IMG/VR virus record: IMGVR_UViG_2531839662_000018
Coordinates: 1 to 12,903 of that record
Strand: one strand, 5' to 3'
DNA from: a virus
Lineage: Duplodnaviria > Heunggongvirae > Uroviricota > Caudoviricetes
Length of the DNA: 12,903 nucleotides
Every line of letters begins with the position of its first letter. Positions within the stretch are counted from its first letter, which is position 1. Below the pieces are notes generated by a model. That model was not told the DNA's origin. It saw only the letters and a program-made list of their open reading frames with translations, and did no database searches. Positions 1-11,554 of this stretch are shown here, piece by piece. The position numbers and the translations under genes are program-made.

Positions 1-1242
1 ATGGCACGAAAAACCACCCCACTAACCATTACGGAGATCAAAAACGCACGACCAGGGGAAAAGGAATACACCCTGCAGGATGGTGGAGGATTATTTCTTC
101 TGGTGAAACCCTCCGGATCAAAAATCTGGCGTTTTACGTACTATCGCCCGGCAGATAAAAAACGGACTATCATCAGCCTCGGATCGCTGAATGATGTTTC
201 CCTGTCCGATGCCAGAGAACGACGGAATGAATACAGGTCACTCATAGCGAAGGGAGTTGACCCACAGGACCACGAACGCCGGAAACGTGAAGCAGAGAGT
301 CGGAAAAAGGGCAACACGTTCGAAAAAGTTGCCTCGGACTGGTACGAGATGAAAAAAGGCCAGAATCTGGCTTACAACACGATTAAGGATATCTGGCGAT
401 CCCTGGAAAAATACGTATTCCCGTACATCGGAAACACGCCAATAGATACCCTCACAGCTCGCCGCTTTGTTGAGATACTCACACCCATTAAAGCACGCGG
501 CAACCTGGAAACCCTGAAACGCGTTTTACAACGCATCAATGAAGTGATGGATTTTGCTGCCAACAGTGGGCTGATTGACATCAACACCGCCGCGAACGTC
601 CGCAAGGCATTCCCCTCACCCACCAAAAAGCACATGCCAACCATCCGACCGGAACAGCTACCGCAGCTAATGCACGATTTATCGGTCGCCAGCATAGAAC
701 GGCAAACCAGATTGCTGATTGAGTGGCAACTGCTGACCGTAGCACGCCCAGCCGAAGCAGCCGCCGCACGCTGGGAAGAAATAGATCTCGATGCCGAAAC
801 CTGGACGATTCCAGCCGGACGCATGAAGATGCGCCGTGACCATGTGATCCCTCTTTGCGGTCAGGCGATGGCTGTACTGGAAACAATGAAGCCAATCAGC
901 GCACACAGGGAACATGTTTTTCCCAGCCTTAAAAATCCAATGCTGCCAATGAGCAGCCAGACCGCTAACGCTGCATTGCGCCGGATGGGATACGCTGGTG
1001 TGCTGGTGTCTCACGGATTACGCGCCATATTCAGTACAGCAGCGAACGAGGAAGGATTCGAGCCGGACGTAATCGAGGCCGCACTCGCACACGTGGACAC
1101 GAACGAGGTAAGGCGAGCATATAACCGAAGTAACTACCTGGAAAAGCGCGTGGTGCTTATGCGCTGGTGGGGGGAATTTGTAGAGGCCGCAGCTACCGGA
1201 GTGACCATAGCCAGTGGTAAAAGGGGTATCCGTGCCGTGTAA
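1..1242 (+). CDS. int: P4-type tyrosine integrase/recombinase (413 aa)
   Basis: Full ORF from ATG at position 1. N-terminal arm-binding region with the DGGGL motif typical of P4-family integrases (KEYTLQDGGGLFLLVKPSGSKIWRFTYY). C-terminal catalytic region has HGLR, a later AHV, and the nucleophile Tyr in RRAYNRSNYLEKRVVLMRWW. Identified by eye from conserved motifs. Confidence 0.95.
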   Translation: MARKTTPLTITEIKNARPGEKEYTLQDGGGLFLLVKPSGSKIWRFTYYRPADKKRTIISLGSLNDVSLSDARERRNEYRSLIAKGVDPQDHERRKREAESRKKGNTFEKVASDWYEMKKGQNLAYNTIKDIWRSLEKYVFPYIGNTPIDTLTARRFVEILTPIKARGNLETLKRVLQRINEVMDFAANSGLIDINTAANVRKAFPSPTKKHMPTIRPEQLPQLMHDLSVASIERQTRLLIEWQLLTVARPAEAAAARWEEIDLDAETWTIPAGRMKMRRDHVIPLCGQAMAVLETMKPISAHREHVFPSLKNPMLPMSSQTANAALRRMGYAGVLVSHGLRAIFSTAANEEGFEPDVIEAALAHVDTNEVRRAYNRSNYLEKRVVLMRWWGEFVEAAATGVTIASGKRGIRAV

Positions 1243-1340
1243 CTGTACAAAAAGCCAGTGCAACCAGTGAAAACCATGCCAAACCATCGTATAATTGCCA
1301 CAAATTTAACGACAAGGCCGGAGTATATGAAAATTCTATT

Positions 1341-1571
1341 ATGCAAAATACCACCGCCTACGGCGAAGGCCTGCAACTGGCCTTAATGGCAAATCGTGAA
1401 TTCTGGTCAACGTACGATCCGGAAGACAAATCAACAGCCCCCACAAAACACGAGGTAGTCAGTTTTTTGCGCTCGCGTGGCGCATCGAAAAATCTGGCTG
1501 AAAGCATCGACAAGGTGCTGAGACCCACCAGCCTTAAATGCGGTGGACGACCTAAGAAGTGGAAGCGGTAA
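1341..1571 (+). CDS. hypothetical small protein (76 aa)
   Basis: Open frame between int and alpA with a protein-like, charged composition. Its stop is followed immediately by an intrinsic terminator. The ribosome-binding site is weak: the nearby GGAG (1319-1322) is better placed for a 19-codon ORF at 1327. A TATAAT hexamer lies at 1290-1295. Confidence 0.4.
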   Translation: MQNTTAYGEGLQLALMANREFWSTYDPEDKSTAPTKHEVVSFLRSRGASKNLAESIDKVLRPTSLKCGGRPKKWKR

Positions 1572-1576
1572 TCACA

Positions 1577-1607
1577 ATAGCGGCCCTTTGCGGTCGCTAT
1601 TTTTTTG
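1577..1607 (+). terminator. rho-independent terminator after the int / small-ORF unit
   Basis: A roughly 9-bp stem (ATAGCGGCC / GGTCGCTAT, one G.T pair) with a CTTTGC loop, followed directly by a T7 run (1600-1606). Confidence 0.6.
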
Positions 1608-1636: not shown

Positions 1637-1676
1637 AAAACAGTGGGTACCGTTTTAAAACGGTGGGTACTGTTTT
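1637..1676. promoter_or_regulatory. two tandem 20-bp near-palindromic sites upstream of alpA (candidate operator)
   Basis: AAAACAGTGGGTACCGTTTT (1637-1656) is followed directly by AAAACGGTGGGTACTGTTTT (1657-1676), 18/20 identical. In each unit the 8-bp arms are inverted repeats of one another. They lie about 65 bp upstream of the alpA start. Confidence 0.4.
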
Positions 1677-1741
1677 TCCCGCCCTGCCCTGTTTTACCGT
1701 ATTTATCACCGGAATACGCCGGATTAACGAGGTAAAACATA

Positions 1742-1948
1742 GTGGAAACAATCAGAAAAATCCTTACCCGTCAGGAAGTAAAAAATATTCTGCGCATCAA
1801 GGCAGACAGTTCGCTACAGGACATGATCAACGCCGGAAAATTCCCGAAAGGCTTCAAAATCGGTCTGCGTCGTGTTGGCTGGTATGAAGATGAGGTGCTG
1901 GCCTGGCTGAAAGAACGCGAGGAAGAAGCGCGCGGAACGGCTGCGTAA
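1742..1948 (+). CDS. alpA: AlpA-family (excisionase-like HTH) transcriptional regulator
   Basis: 68-codon ORF with a GTG start and a GAGGT Shine-Dalgarno about 10 nt upstream. The sequence fits the AlpA pattern (FPKGFKIGLRRVGWYEDEVLAWL), and int followed by alpA is the canonical order in these islands. Confidence 0.85.
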   Translation: METIRKILTRQEVKNILRIKADSSLQDMINAGKFPKGFKIGLRRVGWYEDEVLAWLKEREEEARGTAA

Positions 1949-1967
1949 TGGTGTGAGGCGTAACGCG

Positions 1968-2954
1968 ATGAACATAACAAAAAGCGCCCCGTTGCCGGAG
2001 CGCCTTTGTGAACGAATAGCCTACTGCGCCATATTGCTTACTGTCTACGAGGCAGATTATAGCGTTGTGGTCGCACAGAGTGAAGGCGCTGATCACCGTT
2101 ACTACAGCACGCCAGAAATGCAGAATATTTTGCTGCAAAATGCCGTTGGTCACGCCGTCCGGAAAGCAAAAAATTTTGCTGGTGGCGCGACTGATGCGAT
2201 TTTGTCAGGTCGCCAGGTGCTGATCAATCTGATGTCTGATTTCGTTCTGGATAAAACAAAGGCGACCGCAGAGAGCCGCCAGTGGAAAAGCTACATACTT
2301 GAACGCATCACCAACAATGCCACATTTGCGGCTGGTGGGCAAAGCGTAACCGGAAAAAAATTCCGGTGGGGCTATTCCTGCTCTTTGGCCTTGCGACGCT
2401 GGCGGTATTCAACTTCTCGCTTTAATGCTGCTGTTACAAACTGCCCTGTACTTTCACCAGGCATTTTTACCGCCTCAACATTGTTCATAACTTCATGCGG
2501 AACCCTTGCCGCAACTGTTTGTGATTTTGCGTTTACTGCTTTTGTTGCCATGTTGTGTACCCCTTACAAAAAACAAATGCAGTATGCAGGAAAAAAAATA
2601 AGTGTTCAACACTTGACGTGTTTAACACCAGGGCTTAAATTGGTGTTCAACACCTTACTGATGCAAGGTGCAGAAACGACGAAACCCGGCAGTGCGCTAA
2701 CACTAACCGGGCTTCTAACCACCAACGATAGAAAGCGTATCGAGGTAGCTATGAGAAATTATACCAGACACCCGCAAGGGCGGGACTCGTACAACCTGAA
2801 TAAATACATCTGGCGTTTTATCGCCCTGAGCACGGCACAACCGCGCGTGATTCACATCGTGGCCACCAGCGAACAGGAAGCACGCCAGCAATCCCCGGCT
2901 GGCTGCGTGATGGTATTCGCTGCCCGTATTCGCCAGGAGGTACGCCATGATTAA
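1968..2954 (+). CDS. long stop-free frame (328 aa from ATG 1968); probably a composite, not one protein
   Basis: The 5-prime 400 nt has a GAGG ribosome-binding site 9 nt upstream and coding-like, purine-rich first codon positions. The middle (2372-2654) reads as Cys/Ser/Thr/Phe-rich junk, is antisense to a well-formed RHH ORF, and contains three perfect palindromes plus a promoter. The 3-prime 204 nt (ATG 2751, GAGGT site) ends in an ATGATTAA overlap with the next gene. A gene finder would likely call the whole ORF; I consider that call doubtful. Confidence 0.3.
   Translation: MNITKSAPLPERLCERIAYCAILLTVYEADYSVVVAQSEGADHRYYSTPEMQNILLQNAVGHAVRKAKNFAGGATDAILSGRQVLINLMSDFVLDKTKATAESRQWKSYILERITNNATFAAGGQSVTGKKFRWGYSCSLALRRWRYSTSRFNAAVTNCPVLSPGIFTASTLFITSCGTLAATVCDFAFTAFVAMLCTPYKKQMQYAGKKISVQHLTCLTPGLKLVFNTLLMQGAETTKPGSALTLTGLLTTNDRKRIEVAMRNYTRHPQGRDSYNLNKYIWRFIALSTAQPRVIHIVATSEQEARQQSPAGCVMVFAARIRQEVRHD
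2372..2551 (-). CDS. ribbon-helix-helix (Arc/CopG-like) transcriptional repressor candidate, 59 aa
   Basis: Minus-strand ORF MATKAVNAKSQTVAARVPHEVMNNVEAVKMPGESTGQFVTAALKREVEYRQRRKAKEQE, below the ORF-track length cutoff. It has a beta-strand/helix/helix RHH pattern, an AAGGGG Shine-Dalgarno 8 nt upstream, and G/A-rich first codon positions, while the opposite strand looks antisense. It is transcribed divergently from the adjacent palindromic operators. Confidence 0.55.
   Translation of the reverse strand: MATKAVNAKSQTVAARVPHEVMNNVEAVKMPGESTGQFVTAALKREVEYRQRRKAKEQE
2601..2654 (+). promoter_or_regulatory. rightward sigma70-like promoter overlapped by three palindromic operators
   Basis: Palindromes AGTGTTCAACACT (2601-2613), GTGTTTAACAC (2618-2628) and GGTGTTCAACACC (2642-2654). 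Candidate -35 TTGACG (2613-2618) and -10 TTAAAT (2635-2640) with a 16-bp spacer. One operator sits just upstream of the -35, one in the spacer and one just after the -10. Confidence 0.55.
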
Positions 2955-5687: not shown

Positions 5688-6230
5688 ATGGGGCAAAGCA
5701 TGACTAAGCTGACCATTAACAGAAAACCTAAAGGCATTTACGGCACGCCGCAGAAAACGACGCAGGCGGCGCAGGAGCAGGATAAAACCACGTCGGCGCA
5801 TAAAGTGATGCCCGGTAACCAGAAAGCGCAGCAGAAGCCCACAGGGGCGACACCGTGGCGGCATATGACCAAACGCCAGCGCAAAAACCGCAGGCGCGTT
5901 AACCGCCTTATCGAACTGTGGCCAGAATTATTCAGCCGGGAAGCACCGAAGCCGCTTAAGGTGGGGATATTTGACGACCTGATGCAGGATCTCGCCGTCA
6001 GGGGGCTGGCATTCGGGCCAGGGGCATTACGTGCGACGCTGGCATCTTATGCGCAGTGTCCGCGCTATTACCGCGCCTTAATGGCTGGTGGGGTACGCTA
6101 CGACCTGAAAGGCCAGCCGTGCGGCGAGGTGACACCACAGGAACAACAGGACGCAGAAACGCGGCTGGTGGCGCTGAATGAGAAGCGCAAACGTCAGCGC
6201 CGGGCAGCAAAGGAGAAAACAGGCGCATGA
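5688..6230 (+). CDS. ProQ/FinO-domain RNA-binding protein
   Basis: The central region (PLKVGIFDDLMQDLAVRGLAFGPGALRATLASYAQCPRYYRALMAGGVRYDLKGQPCGEV) matches, from memory, the conserved ProQ N-terminal/FinO domain. Basic Lys/Arg-rich N- and C-terminal tails. An alternative start at ATG 5700 has a better GGGG ribosome-binding site. Confidence 0.85.
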   Translation: MGQSMTKLTINRKPKGIYGTPQKTTQAAQEQDKTTSAHKVMPGNQKAQQKPTGATPWRHMTKRQRKNRRRVNRLIELWPELFSREAPKPLKVGIFDDLMQDLAVRGLAFGPGALRATLASYAQCPRYYRALMAGGVRYDLKGQPCGEVTPQEQQDAETRLVALNEKRKRQRRAAKEKTGA

Positions 6231-6514
6231 TTCACGACAGCAAAGCGGAAGCACTGGAAGCGCGTGGTCTGTACCGGAGAGCGGCGGCGCGGTGGGCTGA
6301 GGTCATCATGCTGGCGAATGATGACAAGGCACGGGAACAGGCGGCAAAACGTCGCGCGGAATGTATCCGCAAGGCAGCACGCCCACCAGCACGGCAGGAT
6401 AATTTCGGGGAGATGCGCGAAACCATCAGCCGGGCACATGCCGGGATGGGATTACATCAGCCCAATGGTAAGGCATTCAGGAAATACCCTGGATCGAAAA
6501 ATTGCAGTCAGTGA
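6227..6514 (+). CDS. PerC-like small transcriptional regulator candidate (95 aa)
   Basis: The start overlaps the previous stop (ATGA). The N-terminus (KAEALEARGLYRRAAARWAEV) resembles the conserved opening of PerC-family regulators, recalled from memory without alignment. Basic, Arg-rich protein. Confidence 0.6.
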   Translation: MIHDSKAEALEARGLYRRAAARWAEVIMLANDDKAREQAAKRRAECIRKAARPPARQDNFGEMRETISRAHAGMGLHQPNGKAFRKYPGSKNCSQ

Positions 6515-7577: not shown

Positions 7578-8249
7578 ATGCTTTTAACAGAAATTGAGGC
7601 GGCAAAGCAGATTCGGGACGGTCAGCTACCGTCGCCTTATCAGTTTTCCAACATGTGGCTGGTTAACCTGCGTATTACAGGAACCGGTATGGCCTACCGC
7701 GCCGAAGAAAAAGAATTTGTCTGGCGTTCACCGCAAACTTATCTCAATCCGCAGTTCCTGGAACGTTGCGCCGGAGTACCCGTCATTATCGACCATCCCG
7801 AAGGCAAAACCATTGAAGACGTTGGCGAACGGTCGCGCATTATTGGCACCGTCATGTTGCCGTATATTCGCGGTGACGAGGTGTGGGGTGTATGCCGGAT
7901 TTACGGGCAGGAAATCATCGATTACATCCAGAAAGCACGGGGGGAGGTATCCACCAGCCCGTCGGTTGTGTTTTGTGGTGCGTCCGGTGGGGCAGAAGTT
8001 CCTGATGTAATGGGCGAGGACAATTTTTTCATTGAGGGTACGCCATTCCTTATCGATCACGTTGCGCTCGTGCCGCTTGGTGTTTGGGATAAGGGCGGGA
8101 AACCATCGGGTGTGGAGGTAACAACGCCGACAGCAGAAGAACAGCTCGCCGGAATGGTCCGGGACGTTATTGATGCGGCCTGCAAGCCAGCCCTGGAAAA
8201 ACTGGAAGAAATATCCGGGCGGCTGGCTCAACTGGAAAAAACAGAGTGA
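7578..8249 (+). CDS. hypothetical protein (223 aa)
   Basis: Protein-like composition; only a weak ribosome-binding site. A faint resemblance to phage prohead-protease-like folds (PVIIDHPEG ... IGTV ... EVSTSPSV) is too weak to call. Confidence 0.75.
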   Translation: MLLTEIEAAKQIRDGQLPSPYQFSNMWLVNLRITGTGMAYRAEEKEFVWRSPQTYLNPQFLERCAGVPVIIDHPEGKTIEDVGERSRIIGTVMLPYIRGDEVWGVCRIYGQEIIDYIQKARGEVSTSPSVVFCGASGGAEVPDVMGEDNFFIEGTPFLIDHVALVPLGVWDKGGKPSGVEVTTPTAEEQLAGMVRDVIDAACKPALEKLEEISGRLAQLEKTE

Positions 8250-8256
8250 GTGAATC

Positions 8257-8874
8257 ATGAAAATTGCTAAAAACTTAAATCTGATTATCCCTGTGCGCAC
8301 TGAAAAGGGAAATGGCTGGATCCATGCCACGCCGATCAGCAAAGAGGTGTTTAAAGAGCATTTCTTCATCCTGAGTAAAACCTTTTCTGCCATTTTTTCT
8401 GAAGGTCTTGGTGTTGTTGCGGGTCCGCGCGTTGCCTGCCTTATGCTGGAGAAAATCTCCCGTGACTCCGGTTTATGGGATGGGGAGAAAGGCATACGTA
8501 ATACGCTCATAAACGAAATTATTCGCCTGGCAAACCTTGTTTATCCAGTGGAGGGCAAAGGCTACGACACAATCCCTCTCGATATGGCGCTGGAGCGTGA
8601 AATCGTTGATTTGGACGAAGTGGCGGGTGAACTTGTTTTTTTTACATGCGTCTCGTCGATAAATTCCCCGGAGCAGACGAAGGGGACTATGGATGCGGTG
8701 AATGGAATATGGAGCACTCAATGCTCGTCCTTGAGTCTTACGGAATGGATCGCTTCATTGCCGACATTGAAGCCTGCCGTCAGTTCTGGCGCGACGGCGA
8801 ACACGTCATCAGCGACATCCTCGACTACTCAGCCGGAGCCGGATTCAGAGACATCTGTGCAGATTCCGGTCTGA
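8257..8874 (+). CDS. hypothetical protein; zero-frame product 205 aa, candidate upstream partner of a -1 frameshift pair (G-like)
   Basis: The first 129 codons are protein-like. After the T8 run (8636-8643) the zero frame becomes Ser/Thr-rich low complexity until its stop at 8874, while the -1 frame carries a well-formed ORF. Confidence 0.6.
   Translation: MKIAKNLNLIIPVRTEKGNGWIHATPISKEVFKEHFFILSKTFSAIFSEGLGVVAGPRVACLMLEKISRDSGLWDGEKGIRNTLINEIIRLANLVYPVEGKGYDTIPLDMALEREIVDLDEVAGELVFFTCVSSINSPEQTKGTMDAVNGIWSTQCSSLSLTEWIASLPTLKPAVSSGATANTSSATSSTTQPEPDSETSVQIPV
8636..8643 (+). other. T8 homopolymer forming a U UUU UUU slippery heptamer (candidate -1 programmed frameshift site)
   Basis: Zero-frame codons GTT TTT TTT ACA. 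A -1 slip re-pairs both tRNAs on TTT and continues as TAC ATG into the frame of ORF 8646-8939. Confidence 0.4.
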
Positions 8875-8939
8875 ATGTAAAAACAGCAGCTCAGTTTCGT
8901 GAGCTGCTCAAATTCAAAAATCCCGCAGGAGTATTGTAA
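8646..8939 (+). CDS. -1 frame ORF (97 aa from its first ATG), probably the C-terminal extension of a frameshift fusion (GT-like)
   Basis: This frame opens at 8631 just before the slip site. Its stop overlaps the start of the 679-aa gene (TAATG). Protein-like composition (FIADIEACRQFWRDGEHVISDILDYSAGAGFRDICADSGLNVKTAAQFRELLKF). Internal ATGs at 8709 and 8721, the latter with a GGAG ribosome-binding site, allow independent initiation as an alternative. Confidence 0.5.
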   Translation: MRLVDKFPGADEGDYGCGEWNMEHSMLVLESYGMDRFIADIEACRQFWRDGEHVISDILDYSAGAGFRDICADSGLNVKTAAQFRELLKFKNPAGVL

Positions 8940-10978
8940 TGTCAGGTAATCAGATGCCAGTTCTAACGCTGGACGTTAATGAAGAACACCTCAAACGGCT
9001 TGAGGCAATTTTTGAAAAGTATCGCAACGGGCTGATGATCGGCCCTGCCGGAACGCCGATGAAAATACCGGGGCAAAGTGGGCGCAGCGTGGGGGCAGGC
9101 TTACCCGTGGCGGCAAAATCTGGTCGGACAGGACCGGATGTATCCGGGAGAGTGAGGGACGAAAAAGGGCGCTTTGTCGGCAGCGGAAAAACAGCAGATT
9201 CGTTCGTAAGCAACTATAAAGGTCGCGGCGAAACGATGTTTGATAAGTATCTCAGCGGGCTGGGGAAAAATGCCCAACAGACGCTGAAAACTTACAAGCA
9301 GATCAATTCTACACTACAGACGACCACTTCAAGATTAAACAACCTGTTTAAAACAACCGTATCGTGGGGAACAAAACTCTCGGTTATGGGCGTTGCCGGA
9401 CCGTTTGGCTTTGGCATGATGTCCCGTAGTGTTGTAGAGAAACAGAAAAATGCAGATGAGCTGGTGGCAACGCCAGGAGAGTTAAAGGCGGCAGAAAGCA
9501 CTTATTCGCCTTATTTTTCCGGTGTTGGCAATGTGCTCAATACACTGGCAGCAGCACAAAATGATATATCGCATCCTGCCCGCGTCGGCCTGCTTAATCT
9601 GGGGCTAAATCCTGATAAAAACGCGACTGAAAACCTGCCTGTATTCCTGAAAAAGGTTGCAGCGCTGGCAAAGGAATATCAGGGAACTGGTCTTACCCAG
9701 AGCAATTTCAGAGGAATGGGGCTTGGATGGGTAAATTTTGGTCTTACTAACCAGTTAGTCAAATATCAGGACAAAATACCTGAACTCAACAAAGAGTTTT
9801 CGTTACGTGCAGCGCAGAATGATTCGTTACTGACCTCTGCACATACAAGTAAATATCAGAATCTTACCAGTAACCTGGAAAAAAACTGGGATCGGCTTAC
9901 CAGCGGATTTCAGGGAGCAATGGCGGGGAATGAAGACGCTTTAATCAGAATGTCTGATGGTACCACGAATGCTGCCCTGAATTTCATGAATGGTGAGAAC
10001 TTTAAAAGGATTCTGACTGATGTTGAAACGGGGCTGGATAAACTTGGTAAGTACGTTAATGGCCCGGATTTTAATAACGACCTGAACAATTTTGCCGAAA
10101 ACGTTGCAAAGGTCACCAAGGCACTTAGCGGATTTGTTGGTTTTGCCGTTGAACATCCCTGGCTTTTTGGGGCCGCAGTGCTTGCGGGGCCATCAAGAGT
10201 TGGTGCCGTGGCAGCCACAACAACCGGAGTTGCCGCTCGTGTTGTCGGTGGAAGTCTTCTTGGGGCTACAGCCGGAACAGTAGCAGGATTGGCTATTCCT
10301 ACAAATAACACACCTACCACCAGTGAGGAAATGAAAGGGCTGGAGGGGCGTTTCAACTTTGATTATTTTAACGAAGTGCAGGAGTGGCAAAAAAACAATC
10401 CGGGTAAGGTCTGGCCTGGAGGATTGCAGGGATTTTCAAATCAAGTAAACAGATCTGCATATTTATCCAGAGGGATCAGGAATAACAATCCCGGAAATCT
10501 TAATTTCGCAGGACAAAAAGGGGCTACTCTGGAATCGGGGCCAAATGCCCGTTTTGCCAGCTTCCCGACGATGCTGGAAGGCATTGCCGCCTTAGATCGG
10601 CAGGTAATGCTATACCTGAAACGCGGCAAAAATACGATTGATCAGATTATTGATATTTATGCCCCTTCATCTGATGGAAATAACACATCGTCCTATAAAA
10701 GCTATCTTTCTCAGTACACCGGATTAGGTGTTAAGGAGAAAATTGATGGTTCTAATTTTGAGGTCATGAAAAAGCTAATTCAGGGCATTATTAACCATGA
10801 AAATGGTGCTGCCGCTAAAGCTGTAAGTGTTGAAGATGTGATCCGGGCGCTGGCTATGAATCGTGGGATTGTCCCTGCAGCAGGAAACAATGATCAGAAC
10901 GTTAAGTTGGAAATTGTTCGGAACGCTGGTGCCGATTACTTCGCGCAACTAATTGGTGCTCAACGGTTCCTGGGATGA
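8939..10978 (+). CDS. large protein (679 aa) with Gly/Ala-rich hydrophobic core; tape-measure-like candidate
   Basis: Strong AGGAG ribosome-binding site, coupled to the upstream ORF. An Asn/Thr/Gly-rich N-terminal 400 aa. A hydrophobic segment FAVEHPWLFGAAVLAGPSRVGAVAATTTGVAARVVGGSLLGATAGTVAGLAIP (nt about 10143-10300). A C-terminal domain of about 220 aa containing the motif RGIRNNNPGNL (nt about 10471-10503). Confidence 0.9.
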   Translation: MSGNQMPVLTLDVNEEHLKRLEAIFEKYRNGLMIGPAGTPMKIPGQSGRSVGAGLPVAAKSGRTGPDVSGRVRDEKGRFVGSGKTADSFVSNYKGRGETMFDKYLSGLGKNAQQTLKTYKQINSTLQTTTSRLNNLFKTTVSWGTKLSVMGVAGPFGFGMMSRSVVEKQKNADELVATPGELKAAESTYSPYFSGVGNVLNTLAAAQNDISHPARVGLLNLGLNPDKNATENLPVFLKKVAALAKEYQGTGLTQSNFRGMGLGWVNFGLTNQLVKYQDKIPELNKEFSLRAAQNDSLLTSAHTSKYQNLTSNLEKNWDRLTSGFQGAMAGNEDALIRMSDGTTNAALNFMNGENFKRILTDVETGLDKLGKYVNGPDFNNDLNNFAENVAKVTKALSGFVGFAVEHPWLFGAAVLAGPSRVGAVAATTTGVAARVVGGSLLGATAGTVAGLAIPTNNTPTTSEEMKGLEGRFNFDYFNEVQEWQKNNPGKVWPGGLQGFSNQVNRSAYLSRGIRNNNPGNLNFAGQKGATLESGPNARFASFPTMLEGIAALDRQVMLYLKRGKNTIDQIIDIYAPSSDGNNTSSYKSYLSQYTGLGVKEKIDGSNFEVMKKLIQGIINHENGAAAKAVSVEDVIRALAMNRGIVPAAGNNDQNVKLEIVRNAGADYFAQLIGAQRFLG

Positions 10979-11029
10979 TTTAAATACACGCGCTTTCCGG
11001 CGCATTAATACAGTCTGAGGGGAAGTGTC

Positions 11030-11554
11030 ATGTTTATGAGCAAGGCAGAATATGCCAAACACAAAGGCGTAAGCCGCCAGACAGTTTACGACTGGATCGA
11101 GAAAGGCGAAGTGGTCATGTCCGGTAAAAAAATCGATGTGGAAGCGACAGAGCAGCGGAACAGCCCACCAGCACAGGGAAAAGATACCGTTTCTGAAATG
11201 TGGCCAGAGAGAACGCTGGAAATGACGTGGGGCGAGTTCTGGAAAGCAGTTAAGGCCAGAGACGGTAAAATCCCTGCACCAGTAACGGACGATGACATAC
11301 AGCAGCGTGTGCAGGATGCAGCCGGGGAATTATGCTGTGAAGTGCAATTTCTTGATGATGGTGCTATCTGCCTTGAGGATTATGCTGGGCAATATTACTT
11401 TGAGCAGTATGATTTTCGGGAAAATGCCAGGCTGGCAATTCGTATGCTGCGTTGTGAGCTCTGCTATGTTGCAGGTGATTGTCCCGATGAGCTGGATAAC
11501 TGGAGTGAAGCCGGACTAAACGCCCTGGCTGAGTGGGAAAAATCATCCCATTAA
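11030..11554 (+). CDS. HTH DNA-binding protein (174 aa), excisionase/terminase-small-subunit-like N-terminal HTH with Cys-rich C-terminal domain
   Basis: GAGGGGAAG ribosome-binding site. The N-terminus (KAEYAKHKGVSRQTVYDWIEKGEV) is a classic HTH of the Xis/AlpA/TerS-Nu1 type. The C-terminal half has six Cys (CCEVQF ... CLEDY ... CELCYVAGDC). Confidence 0.8.
   Translation: MFMSKAEYAKHKGVSRQTVYDWIEKGEVVMSGKKIDVEATEQRNSPPAQGKDTVSEMWPERTLEMTWGEFWKAVKARDGKIPAPVTDDDIQQRVQDAAGELCCEVQFLDDGAICLEDYAGQYYFEQYDFRENARLAIRMLRCELCYVAGDCPDELDNWSEAGLNALAEWEKSSH

Follow-up and report, generated by a model that had tools for sequence, protein, structure and literature searches.

Tandem 20-bp repeats upstream of alpA in an Escherichia coli satellite island as candidate sites of the island-encoded orf76 protein

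Described switches at alpA and the left end of the island

In the Pseudomonas element ICEclc, the regulator BisR, a 251-aa protein that carries no Pfam domain and is made from a single-gene transcript, strongly activates PalpA, and AlpA represses the same promoter (PMC7423338). A DNA-binding domain was predicted in BisR, the paper giving no location for it within the protein (PMC7423338), and bisR (orf101284) appears, as read from the ORF numbering, to lie just upstream of alpA (orf100952). In the Gram-negative PICIs EcCICFT073 and EcCIMP1, a co-directional alpA follows int at the left end, AlpA is the master switch and is reported as an auto-activator, and the alpA promoter is the entry point of induction, with no operator defined; the literature on such islands names neither a phage inducer nor the DNA that it targets in the alpA promoter (PMC6092414, PMC11773190). 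No island repressor is known from the literature on Gram-negative phage-inducible islands. In the staphylococcal SaPIs, the island-encoded master repressor Stl acts on operators at the excision/replication switch, and stl is divergently transcribed. The AlpA of Pseudomonas aeruginosa is a Q-like antiterminator of eight helices that reads DNA with residues 128-142 and binds GGGACG between -35 and -10 (PMC9371919); it was rejected as an analogue because it is larger than and unrelated to the 68-aa PF05930 winged-helix AlpA studied here, with which it has the name alone in common.

The window, that is, the whole stretch of 12,903 nt analysed here, is the left 12.9 kb of a PICI/P4-like satellite island of ~13 kb that porcine E. 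coli UMNF18 carries at tRNA-Pro, with yejM and yejO on either side; position 1 of the window is the integrase start. The left end reads int, orf76, terminator, two 20-mers and alpA, with all genes on the + strand, and these are followed on the same strand by Icd-like, DUF4222, RepA helicase (primase/helicase), ProQ/FinO, PerC and virion-protein-like genes. As in EcCICFT073 and EcCIMP1, int and a Phage_AlpA-family gene are co-directional, the island end lies beside a tRNA attachment site, and the alpA promoter would be the point at which induction enters; unlike the window, EcCIMP1 lacks a gene of the orf76 type in the int-alpA interval and has a quite different sequence 5′ of alpA. As bisR appears to do in ICEclc, a putative regulator gene stands directly 5′ of alpA as its own transcription unit, with a promoter-like site before it and a strong terminator (1576-1601) behind it. 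The features of the left end are as follows.

1..1242, + strand: P4-type tyrosine integrase (int), adjoining tRNA-Pro; attL is just beyond the window edge
1267..1295, + strand: putative promoter-like site for orf76, GTGAAA-17-TATAAT, 10 of 12 matches in a consensus scan
1341..1571, + strand: orf76, 76 aa, candidate binder
1576..1606, + strand: intrinsic terminator 3′ of orf76, 10-bp stem and T7 run
1637..1656, no strand: repeat 1 (distal), AAAACAGTGGGTACCGTTTT, with core AGTGGGTA at 1642-1649
1657..1676, no strand: repeat 2 (promoter-proximal), AAAACGGTGGGTACTGTTTT, with core GGTGGGTA at 1662-1669
1690..1739, + strand: leader hairpin of 9 bp, arms TGTTTTACC (1690-1698) and GGTAAAACA (1731-1739)
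1695..1700, + strand: putative alpA -10, TACCGT, a weak PWM match with no recognisable -35
1707..1726, + strand: 10-bp tandem repeat CACCGGAATA and CGCCGGATTA (CACCGGAWWA), candidate AlpA sites, invariant in types A and B
1742..1948, + strand: alpA, 68 aa, GTG start at 1742, Pfam PF05930 Phage_AlpA (E = 4.5e-8), annotated in RefSeq

Several observations were made beside these features. Among the genes in 5688-6514 and 7578-11554 are those for ProQ/FinO and PerC regulators, for a DUF2213 protein resembling a head-maturation protease, for a tail- or ejection-protein-like product of 679 aa that includes a lytic-transglycosylase region, and for a small protein of TerS/HTH-like type, a gene content that suggests a satellite of a podovirus-type helper with virulence-regulator cargo. 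The mechanically called 333-aa ORF at 1953-2954 (+) has its known-family match (Icd-like) confined to the last 48 residues, and RefSeq places there only a short Icd-like gene, plus an opposite-strand YlcI/YnfO gene at 2372-2551 (-) within the same stretch; the 333-aa frame as a whole is probably no gene. Just 5′ of the promoter-like site of orf76, CTGTACAAAAAGCCAG (1243-1258) resembles a LexA box (CTGT-N8-CCAG), which could link orf76 expression to SOS or could be chance. The CFT073 region examined was a lambdoid prophage, not EcCICFT073.

The tandem 20-mers and their conservation in close relatives

An earlier note on this DNA had described two adjacent 20-bp near-palindromes at 1637-1676 and had taken them for tandem dimer-type sites. 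The two 20-mers lie exactly at these positions, ~65-105 nt 5′ of the alpA start, directly abut each other and are identical at 18 of 20 bases. An adjacent 20-mer pair of this identity arose in 0 of 200 Markov simulations, the degenerate 20-mer pattern with at most three mismatches occurred at these two places only in the window (0.01 expected; 0 of 200 shuffles), and the AAAACNGT half-sites were found nowhere in the window outside 1637-1676. The tandem arrangement is thus non-random, whereas the palindromic character did not hold up: each copy pairs at 7 of 10 positions, no better than chance, as the window contains 52 20-mers with 7/10 self-complementary pairs vs. 46 expected. Neither 20-mer showed the dyad beyond chance and the symmetric conserved half-sites of a classic dimeric-repressor operator. 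What symmetry there is comes from the A5/T5 flanks and a GT...AC frame placed around the asymmetric core GGTGGGTA, the portion that is conserved in distant relatives. Because the symmetry sits in the flanks and frame while the conserved core is asymmetric, 1637-1676 is a real tandem site that is better called a direct duplication of an A-tract/GGTGGGTAC/T-tract unit than a pair of classic dimer palindromes. The whole 40-mer forms a 16/20 dyad with the perfect inner palindrome ACCGTTTTAAAACGGT.

A motif-blind AlpA-homology scan of IMG/VR, together with E. coli loci, yielded 28 distinct upstream sequences. The flanks of repeat 2 were identical in all 28, with the core at most one base off GGTGGGTA; the flanks of repeat 1 were kept in types A and B, and its centre varied (GGGT, GAGT, GGAT, GTAT, TCTA, TATA), type B having lost the GGGT core and kept the flanks. 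In the type B islands (~78% nt identity here), BLAST homology starts exactly at the repeats, and the terminator 5′ of them differs in sequence and occupies the same place. In L090 (IMGVR_UViG_2874945390_000001) and its duplicates, an exact 20-bp deletion leaves a lone 20-mer, AAAACGGTGGGAACTGTTTT, 5′ of alpA, the retained copy being repeat 2. The earlier note had held that absence of the motif from related islands would speak against its proposal; all type A and B relatives were found to carry the repeats, L090 with one copy. Located in the alpA control region of a satellite-type island and conserved there, the repeats are therefore retained as candidate sites for regulation of alpA. A view drawn from types A and B alone, in which the flanks are the contacts and the centre is free, was discarded, since distant lineages show a conserved centre core.

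orf76, its protein family and the core motif

The orf76 product is predicted to have three helices (residues 5-22, 36-45 and 50-60) followed by a basic GGRPKKWKR tail (AF2 model, pLDDT 79.5). It had no match in Pfam, PHROGs, NCBIfam or PDB sequences, and a fold search returned no convincing structural relative. Its dN/dS of 0.05 between types A and B indicated strong purifying selection, and orf76 is a real protein. When 1.84 billion representative proteins were searched with a profile, 623 relatives came up; in most of them the domain forms the very C-terminal end of a protein of 190-280 aa that has no Pfam domain, and the conserved family signature is QFWSTYDP..TAPTK.EV..YL...G.SKN.AEA.D..LRP....GRP.K. 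The full-length members (P0054-P0060 and others) share an N-terminal domain, ..DDYPNV.HWK.V.EF..E.AALLLAGIDP.., likewise without a Pfam model, which could be a sensor or effector domain. orf76 would then correspond, in stand-alone form, to the C-terminal DNA-binding domain found in an uncharacterised but widespread family, named X in what follows. The domain is putatively a three-helix unit of helix-turn-helix-like type with a basic, AT-hook-like G-R-P tail behind it.

Full-length X relatives of 210-260 aa may be comparable to BisR (251 aa) in size, in the lack of a Pfam domain and, on the ORF numbering, in position. Unlike BisR (CAE92957.1), the E. coli protein consists of the 76-aa C-terminal domain only; unlike the conjugative ICEclc with its parA-shi-bisDC genes, the elements found here are phage-satellite-like (int, X, alpA, Bro-type genes and primase). 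BisR has no published binding site to set against the 20-mers.

Every island of types A and B had both orf76 and the 20-mers (104 loci matched by tblastn). The alpA alleles without orf76, at similar distance (type C, L116, L114, L117 and EcCIMP1), had neither the 20-mer nor GTGGGT/ACCCAC upstream, with AlpA 65-66% identical to the window's over the full length in type C and 68% identical in L116. Stand-alone X homologues in Salmonella, Kluyvera and gut metagenomes (L222-L226) lie directly 5′ of alpA. A metagenome scan found 68 X loci; of the ~30 distant ones whose downstream DNA was long enough, 24 have an AlpA-family gene that begins 118-266 nt past the end of X. The distant X elements are satellite-like, with int, X, alpA, AntA/KilA-N/Rha and Toprim/DUF927. 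The X-alpA gene pair is ancient, and an X gene lies between int and alpA in many Gram-negative satellite islands.

GTGGGTA/ACCCACC beside A/T tracts was common to the five X-alpA spacers that were compared first, those of the window, type B, Salmonella, Kluyvera and a metagenome, and absent from five spacers without X. The 6-8-mers shared among the first five spacers, which are AT-rich, were non-significant alone after multiple testing, and the core GGTGGGTA (at most one mismatch) was therefore fixed beforehand and tried on held-out loci. The held-out X-alpA spacers (18 loci, 3,517 nt) contained 19 core matches, distributed over 9 of the 18 loci, vs. 1.94 expected from the background rate in the rest of the same loci, an enrichment of ~10-fold (Poisson p ~4e-13, an optimistic value because the held-out loci are partly interrelated). 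In 15 alpA upstream regions without X (3,900 nt), three core matches were found, all in one locus, in line with the background of ~2.1 expected. The AlpA proteins of the core group come from several subfamilies and are 21-100% identical to the window's, so that the core occurs also alongside AlpA of only 21-44% identity, and the putative recognition helix of X carries one signature throughout the group, xN[LMV]Ax[AS][IV][DN]..LRP. Lineages with other X helix signatures have other spacer repeats, namely CCGCGCC[TC]A, GACCCC and AACCGTTAGC, and the orientation and copy number of the core differ between lineages. As judged from these alignments, the core tracks the putative X recognition helix, not the AlpA subtype. 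It is mainly because of this two-way pattern that the 20-mers are assigned to the orf76 protein, and not to AlpA or a host or phage factor: on balance, the repeats are probably the cognate sites of the orf76 protein and would control a weak alpA promoter. Against this reading stands the tight linkage of orf76 to the repeats, types A and B being just two lineages.

Competing readings of the repeats and the control of alpA

The earlier note had assigned the repeats to a host or helper-phage regulator, docking there so that alpA transcription is coupled directly to helper infection, and there is reason to consider this. In other Gram-negative PICIs the helper phage induces the alpA promoter independently of SOS, in EcCIMP1 even without AlpA (PMC6092414, PMC11773190), and the alpA promoter of the window is weak and looks activator-dependent. 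However, a scan of IMG/VR for the tandem-motif pattern returned 48 contigs, every one from this island family; BLAST with the repeats gave no significant match in phage records; and single-site matches in viral contigs, among the matches listed, were random-looking and scattered or lay within coding sequence. The motif, moreover, co-varies with the presence of orf76 and with the helix type across hosts from Enterobacteria to GC-rich Proteobacteria, which is hard to reconcile with any single host or phage factor. The repeats also fit none of the known consensus sequences with which they were compared by eye. Relative to the LexA box, CTGT-N8-ACAG, their half-sites are in the wrong order; Ogr/Delta (TGT-N12-ACA), CII, IHF, sigma-54, sigma-E and T3/T7 promoters gave no fit; and for lambda CI a TATCACCGG half-site does lie beside the 10-bp repeats, but its position 2 varies and the second half is missing. 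Direct docking of such a factor is thus unlikely, and the claim gave way to one in which the helper input may enter upstream, via orf76 expression or activity. An exact match that recurred in viral contigs, AAAACCGTTTGAACGGTTTT (L121, L142-L144, L153, L163, L165, L179, L186 and others), is coding sequence (..KPFERF.., LLDEDGGLKPFERFLNDVQTI) of a head-morphogenesis-like protein; such a match misleads motif scans and marks no regulatory site.

AlpA itself was considered as the binder, the repeats then being autoregulatory sites for positive feedback as reported for E. coli PICIs. Direct repeats are frequent targets of winged-helix proteins of the AlpA family, and the 20-mers are specific to certain alpA alleles. 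[quoted passage not shown] Yet the motif is missing beside AlpA proteins of 65-68% identity when orf76 is absent, and the core is present beside an AlpA of 21% identity when X is there. As a recombination directionality factor (RDF), AlpA should also have sites near att, whereas the 20-mers were absent, by eye, from the attL arm and the right-end sequences. Such sites are better sought in the CACCGGAWWA repeats, which are present at both the attL arm and the alpA leader. In the leader they lie between the putative -10 and the alpA ribosome-binding site, with three copies in STEC2018-553 and L111, and they recur in tandem beside the attL core in the tRNA-Pro-to-int arm; apart from window 1707-1726, the coordinates are L001 13674 and 13704 and L002 1168-1262 and 3082-3092. 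In 6.3 kb of type B, the + strand holds the extended 10-bp motif at two places, the attL arm and the alpA leader, and nowhere else. Because AlpA-family proteins act at att (excision) and at their own promoter, these repeats are better candidates for AlpA sites than the 20-mers; they are the RDF-like sites of the island, and a third motif, TAGCTA[CT]ACG, makes up the integrase arm sites. That the 20-mers belong to AlpA is accordingly quite improbable. A third reading, in which the 40-mer is an RNA or DNA structure, either a second bidirectional-type terminator/attenuator insulating alpA from int-orf76 or an A/T-rich UP element, draws on the long imperfect hairpin (A-tract, stem, then U5) into which the 40-mer folds and on the resemblance of A/T tracts at -40 to -60 to UP elements. 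It has to contend with a canonical terminator already 35 nt upstream, with distant lineages in which the core is single-copy or otherwise arranged, and with variation at paired positions (an invariant T faces A, G or T, and an invariant G faces C or A), so that no stem kept by compensatory changes in relatives was found; in L090, one 20-mer leaves no hairpin. Because changes at pairing positions are non-compensatory and the single-copy L090 survives, the comparisons support 20-mers that behave as protein-binding sites rather than RNA structure, and we hold the structural reading to be very improbable.

The islands without X were informative on the same promoter. The type C islands (L006-L009) use the same tRNA-Pro site and have no orf76, no 20-mers and different tandem repeats. 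Their alpA promoter is a consensus TTGACT-17-TATGCT or TATTCT, with 1-3 tandem copies of CCCATTATTTAAAGTTAGAAGA 5′ of alpA, and their own motif CTCATTATT, related to CCCATTATTTAAAGTTAGAAGA, is common to the attL arm, beside the attL core, and to the alpA upstream repeats. Type C therefore represents a different control logic for a 65-66% identical AlpA. L117 (2090-2320; AlpA 52% identical in the best segment) carries about seven TTACCAAAGT iterons and the perfect palindrome TCTGGTATACCAGA 5′ of alpA, retains GCCGGAATACGCCGGA ahead of the start codon, and between its int and alpA lies an ORF of 253 aa. A scan of genome contigs for AlpA returned, among the matches listed, distant AlpA genes only (Acidobacteria and similar).

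Under the preferred reading, in which the repeats are sites of the orf76 protein, the conserved core GGTGGGTA would be read by the X helix and the flanking A/T minor groove by the basic tail, and the two copies, two helical turns apart, would present the same DNA face. From sequence alone we infer the physical binding, the promoter position, the direction of control and the point at which the helper signal enters. A sigma-70 promoter scan 5′ of alpA gave a weak match only, within an invariant block, TTTACCGTATTT, that holds TACCGT. With transcription starting near 1707, the repeats would be centred at ~-40.5 and ~-60.5, and the CACCGGA repeats would span +1 to +20. The arrangement then resembles that of tandem-site class I/II activators (OmpR/PhoB direct repeats, lambda CII at -35), with two same-face sites ~20 bp apart, abutting a -35-less promoter and centred, on the proposed start, near -41 and -61; the orf76 protein has no sequence or family relationship to OmpR/PhoB or lambda CII, and the start position is itself putative.

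Bound orf76 protein may switch alpA transcription on, as BisR does at PalpA. Activation is favoured because islands with orf76 have a weak alpA promoter and type C, without it, has the consensus one, and because of the ICEclc precedent; orf76 is thus most likely an activator of alpA. The opposite sign is plausible, since a constitutive repressor would agree equally well with the decent promoter that orf76 has to itself and with its want of the N-terminal family domain, and since alpA needs silencing in the absence of a helper; an alternative upstream -10 would put the 20-mers over the transcription start, as expected of repressor sites. If orf76 were a repressor relieved by a helper protein, it would resemble SaPI Stl as an island-encoded DNA-binding protein at a switch promoter; unlike here, stl is divergently transcribed, the fold and family are unrelated, and repression and a helper anti-repressor are not indicated for this island. 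Once made, AlpA would act on the CACCGGAWWA repeats in its own leader (~+1 to +20) and beside attL. The leader hairpin would mask the alpA ribosome-binding site (Shine-Dalgarno) in read-through RNA starting 5′ of 1690, whereas transcripts from the putative TACCGT promoter would be without the left arm; the type B arms, TGATTTACC and GGTAAATCA, show one compensatory change vs. type A, U-A to A-U (98.6% of cells paired).

A wider proposal, which we put forward tentatively and regard as doubtful, is that a large class of Gram-negative satellites has in orf76/X its missing master regulator, encoded on the island itself, with the N-terminal domain as sensor in the full-length form, GGTGGGTA-type repeats as operator at alpA, and X as a BisR homologue or functional Stl analogue. 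If true, it would unify alpA control across phage satellites and ICEclc-type conjugative elements and would give an entry point to how helper phages induce Gram-negative PICIs. The island family is not rare: a 379-nt query (spacer plus alpA) matched 442 of 5,426 complete E. coli genomes, and in 372 the match covered 80% or more of the query, which puts the family in roughly 370-440 of these genomes, including porcine ETEC and STEC O103 and O111, with PerC and ProQ/FinO as cargo. At its alpA switch lies a testable pair, a 76-aa protein and two 20-bp sites, and the X domain and the DNA core recur beside alpA in satellites of many Proteobacteria. If confirmed, the pair would define a DNA-binding domain and a recognition motif for a regulator family without a Pfam model, and may link the induction of satellites to the BisR step of ICEclc.
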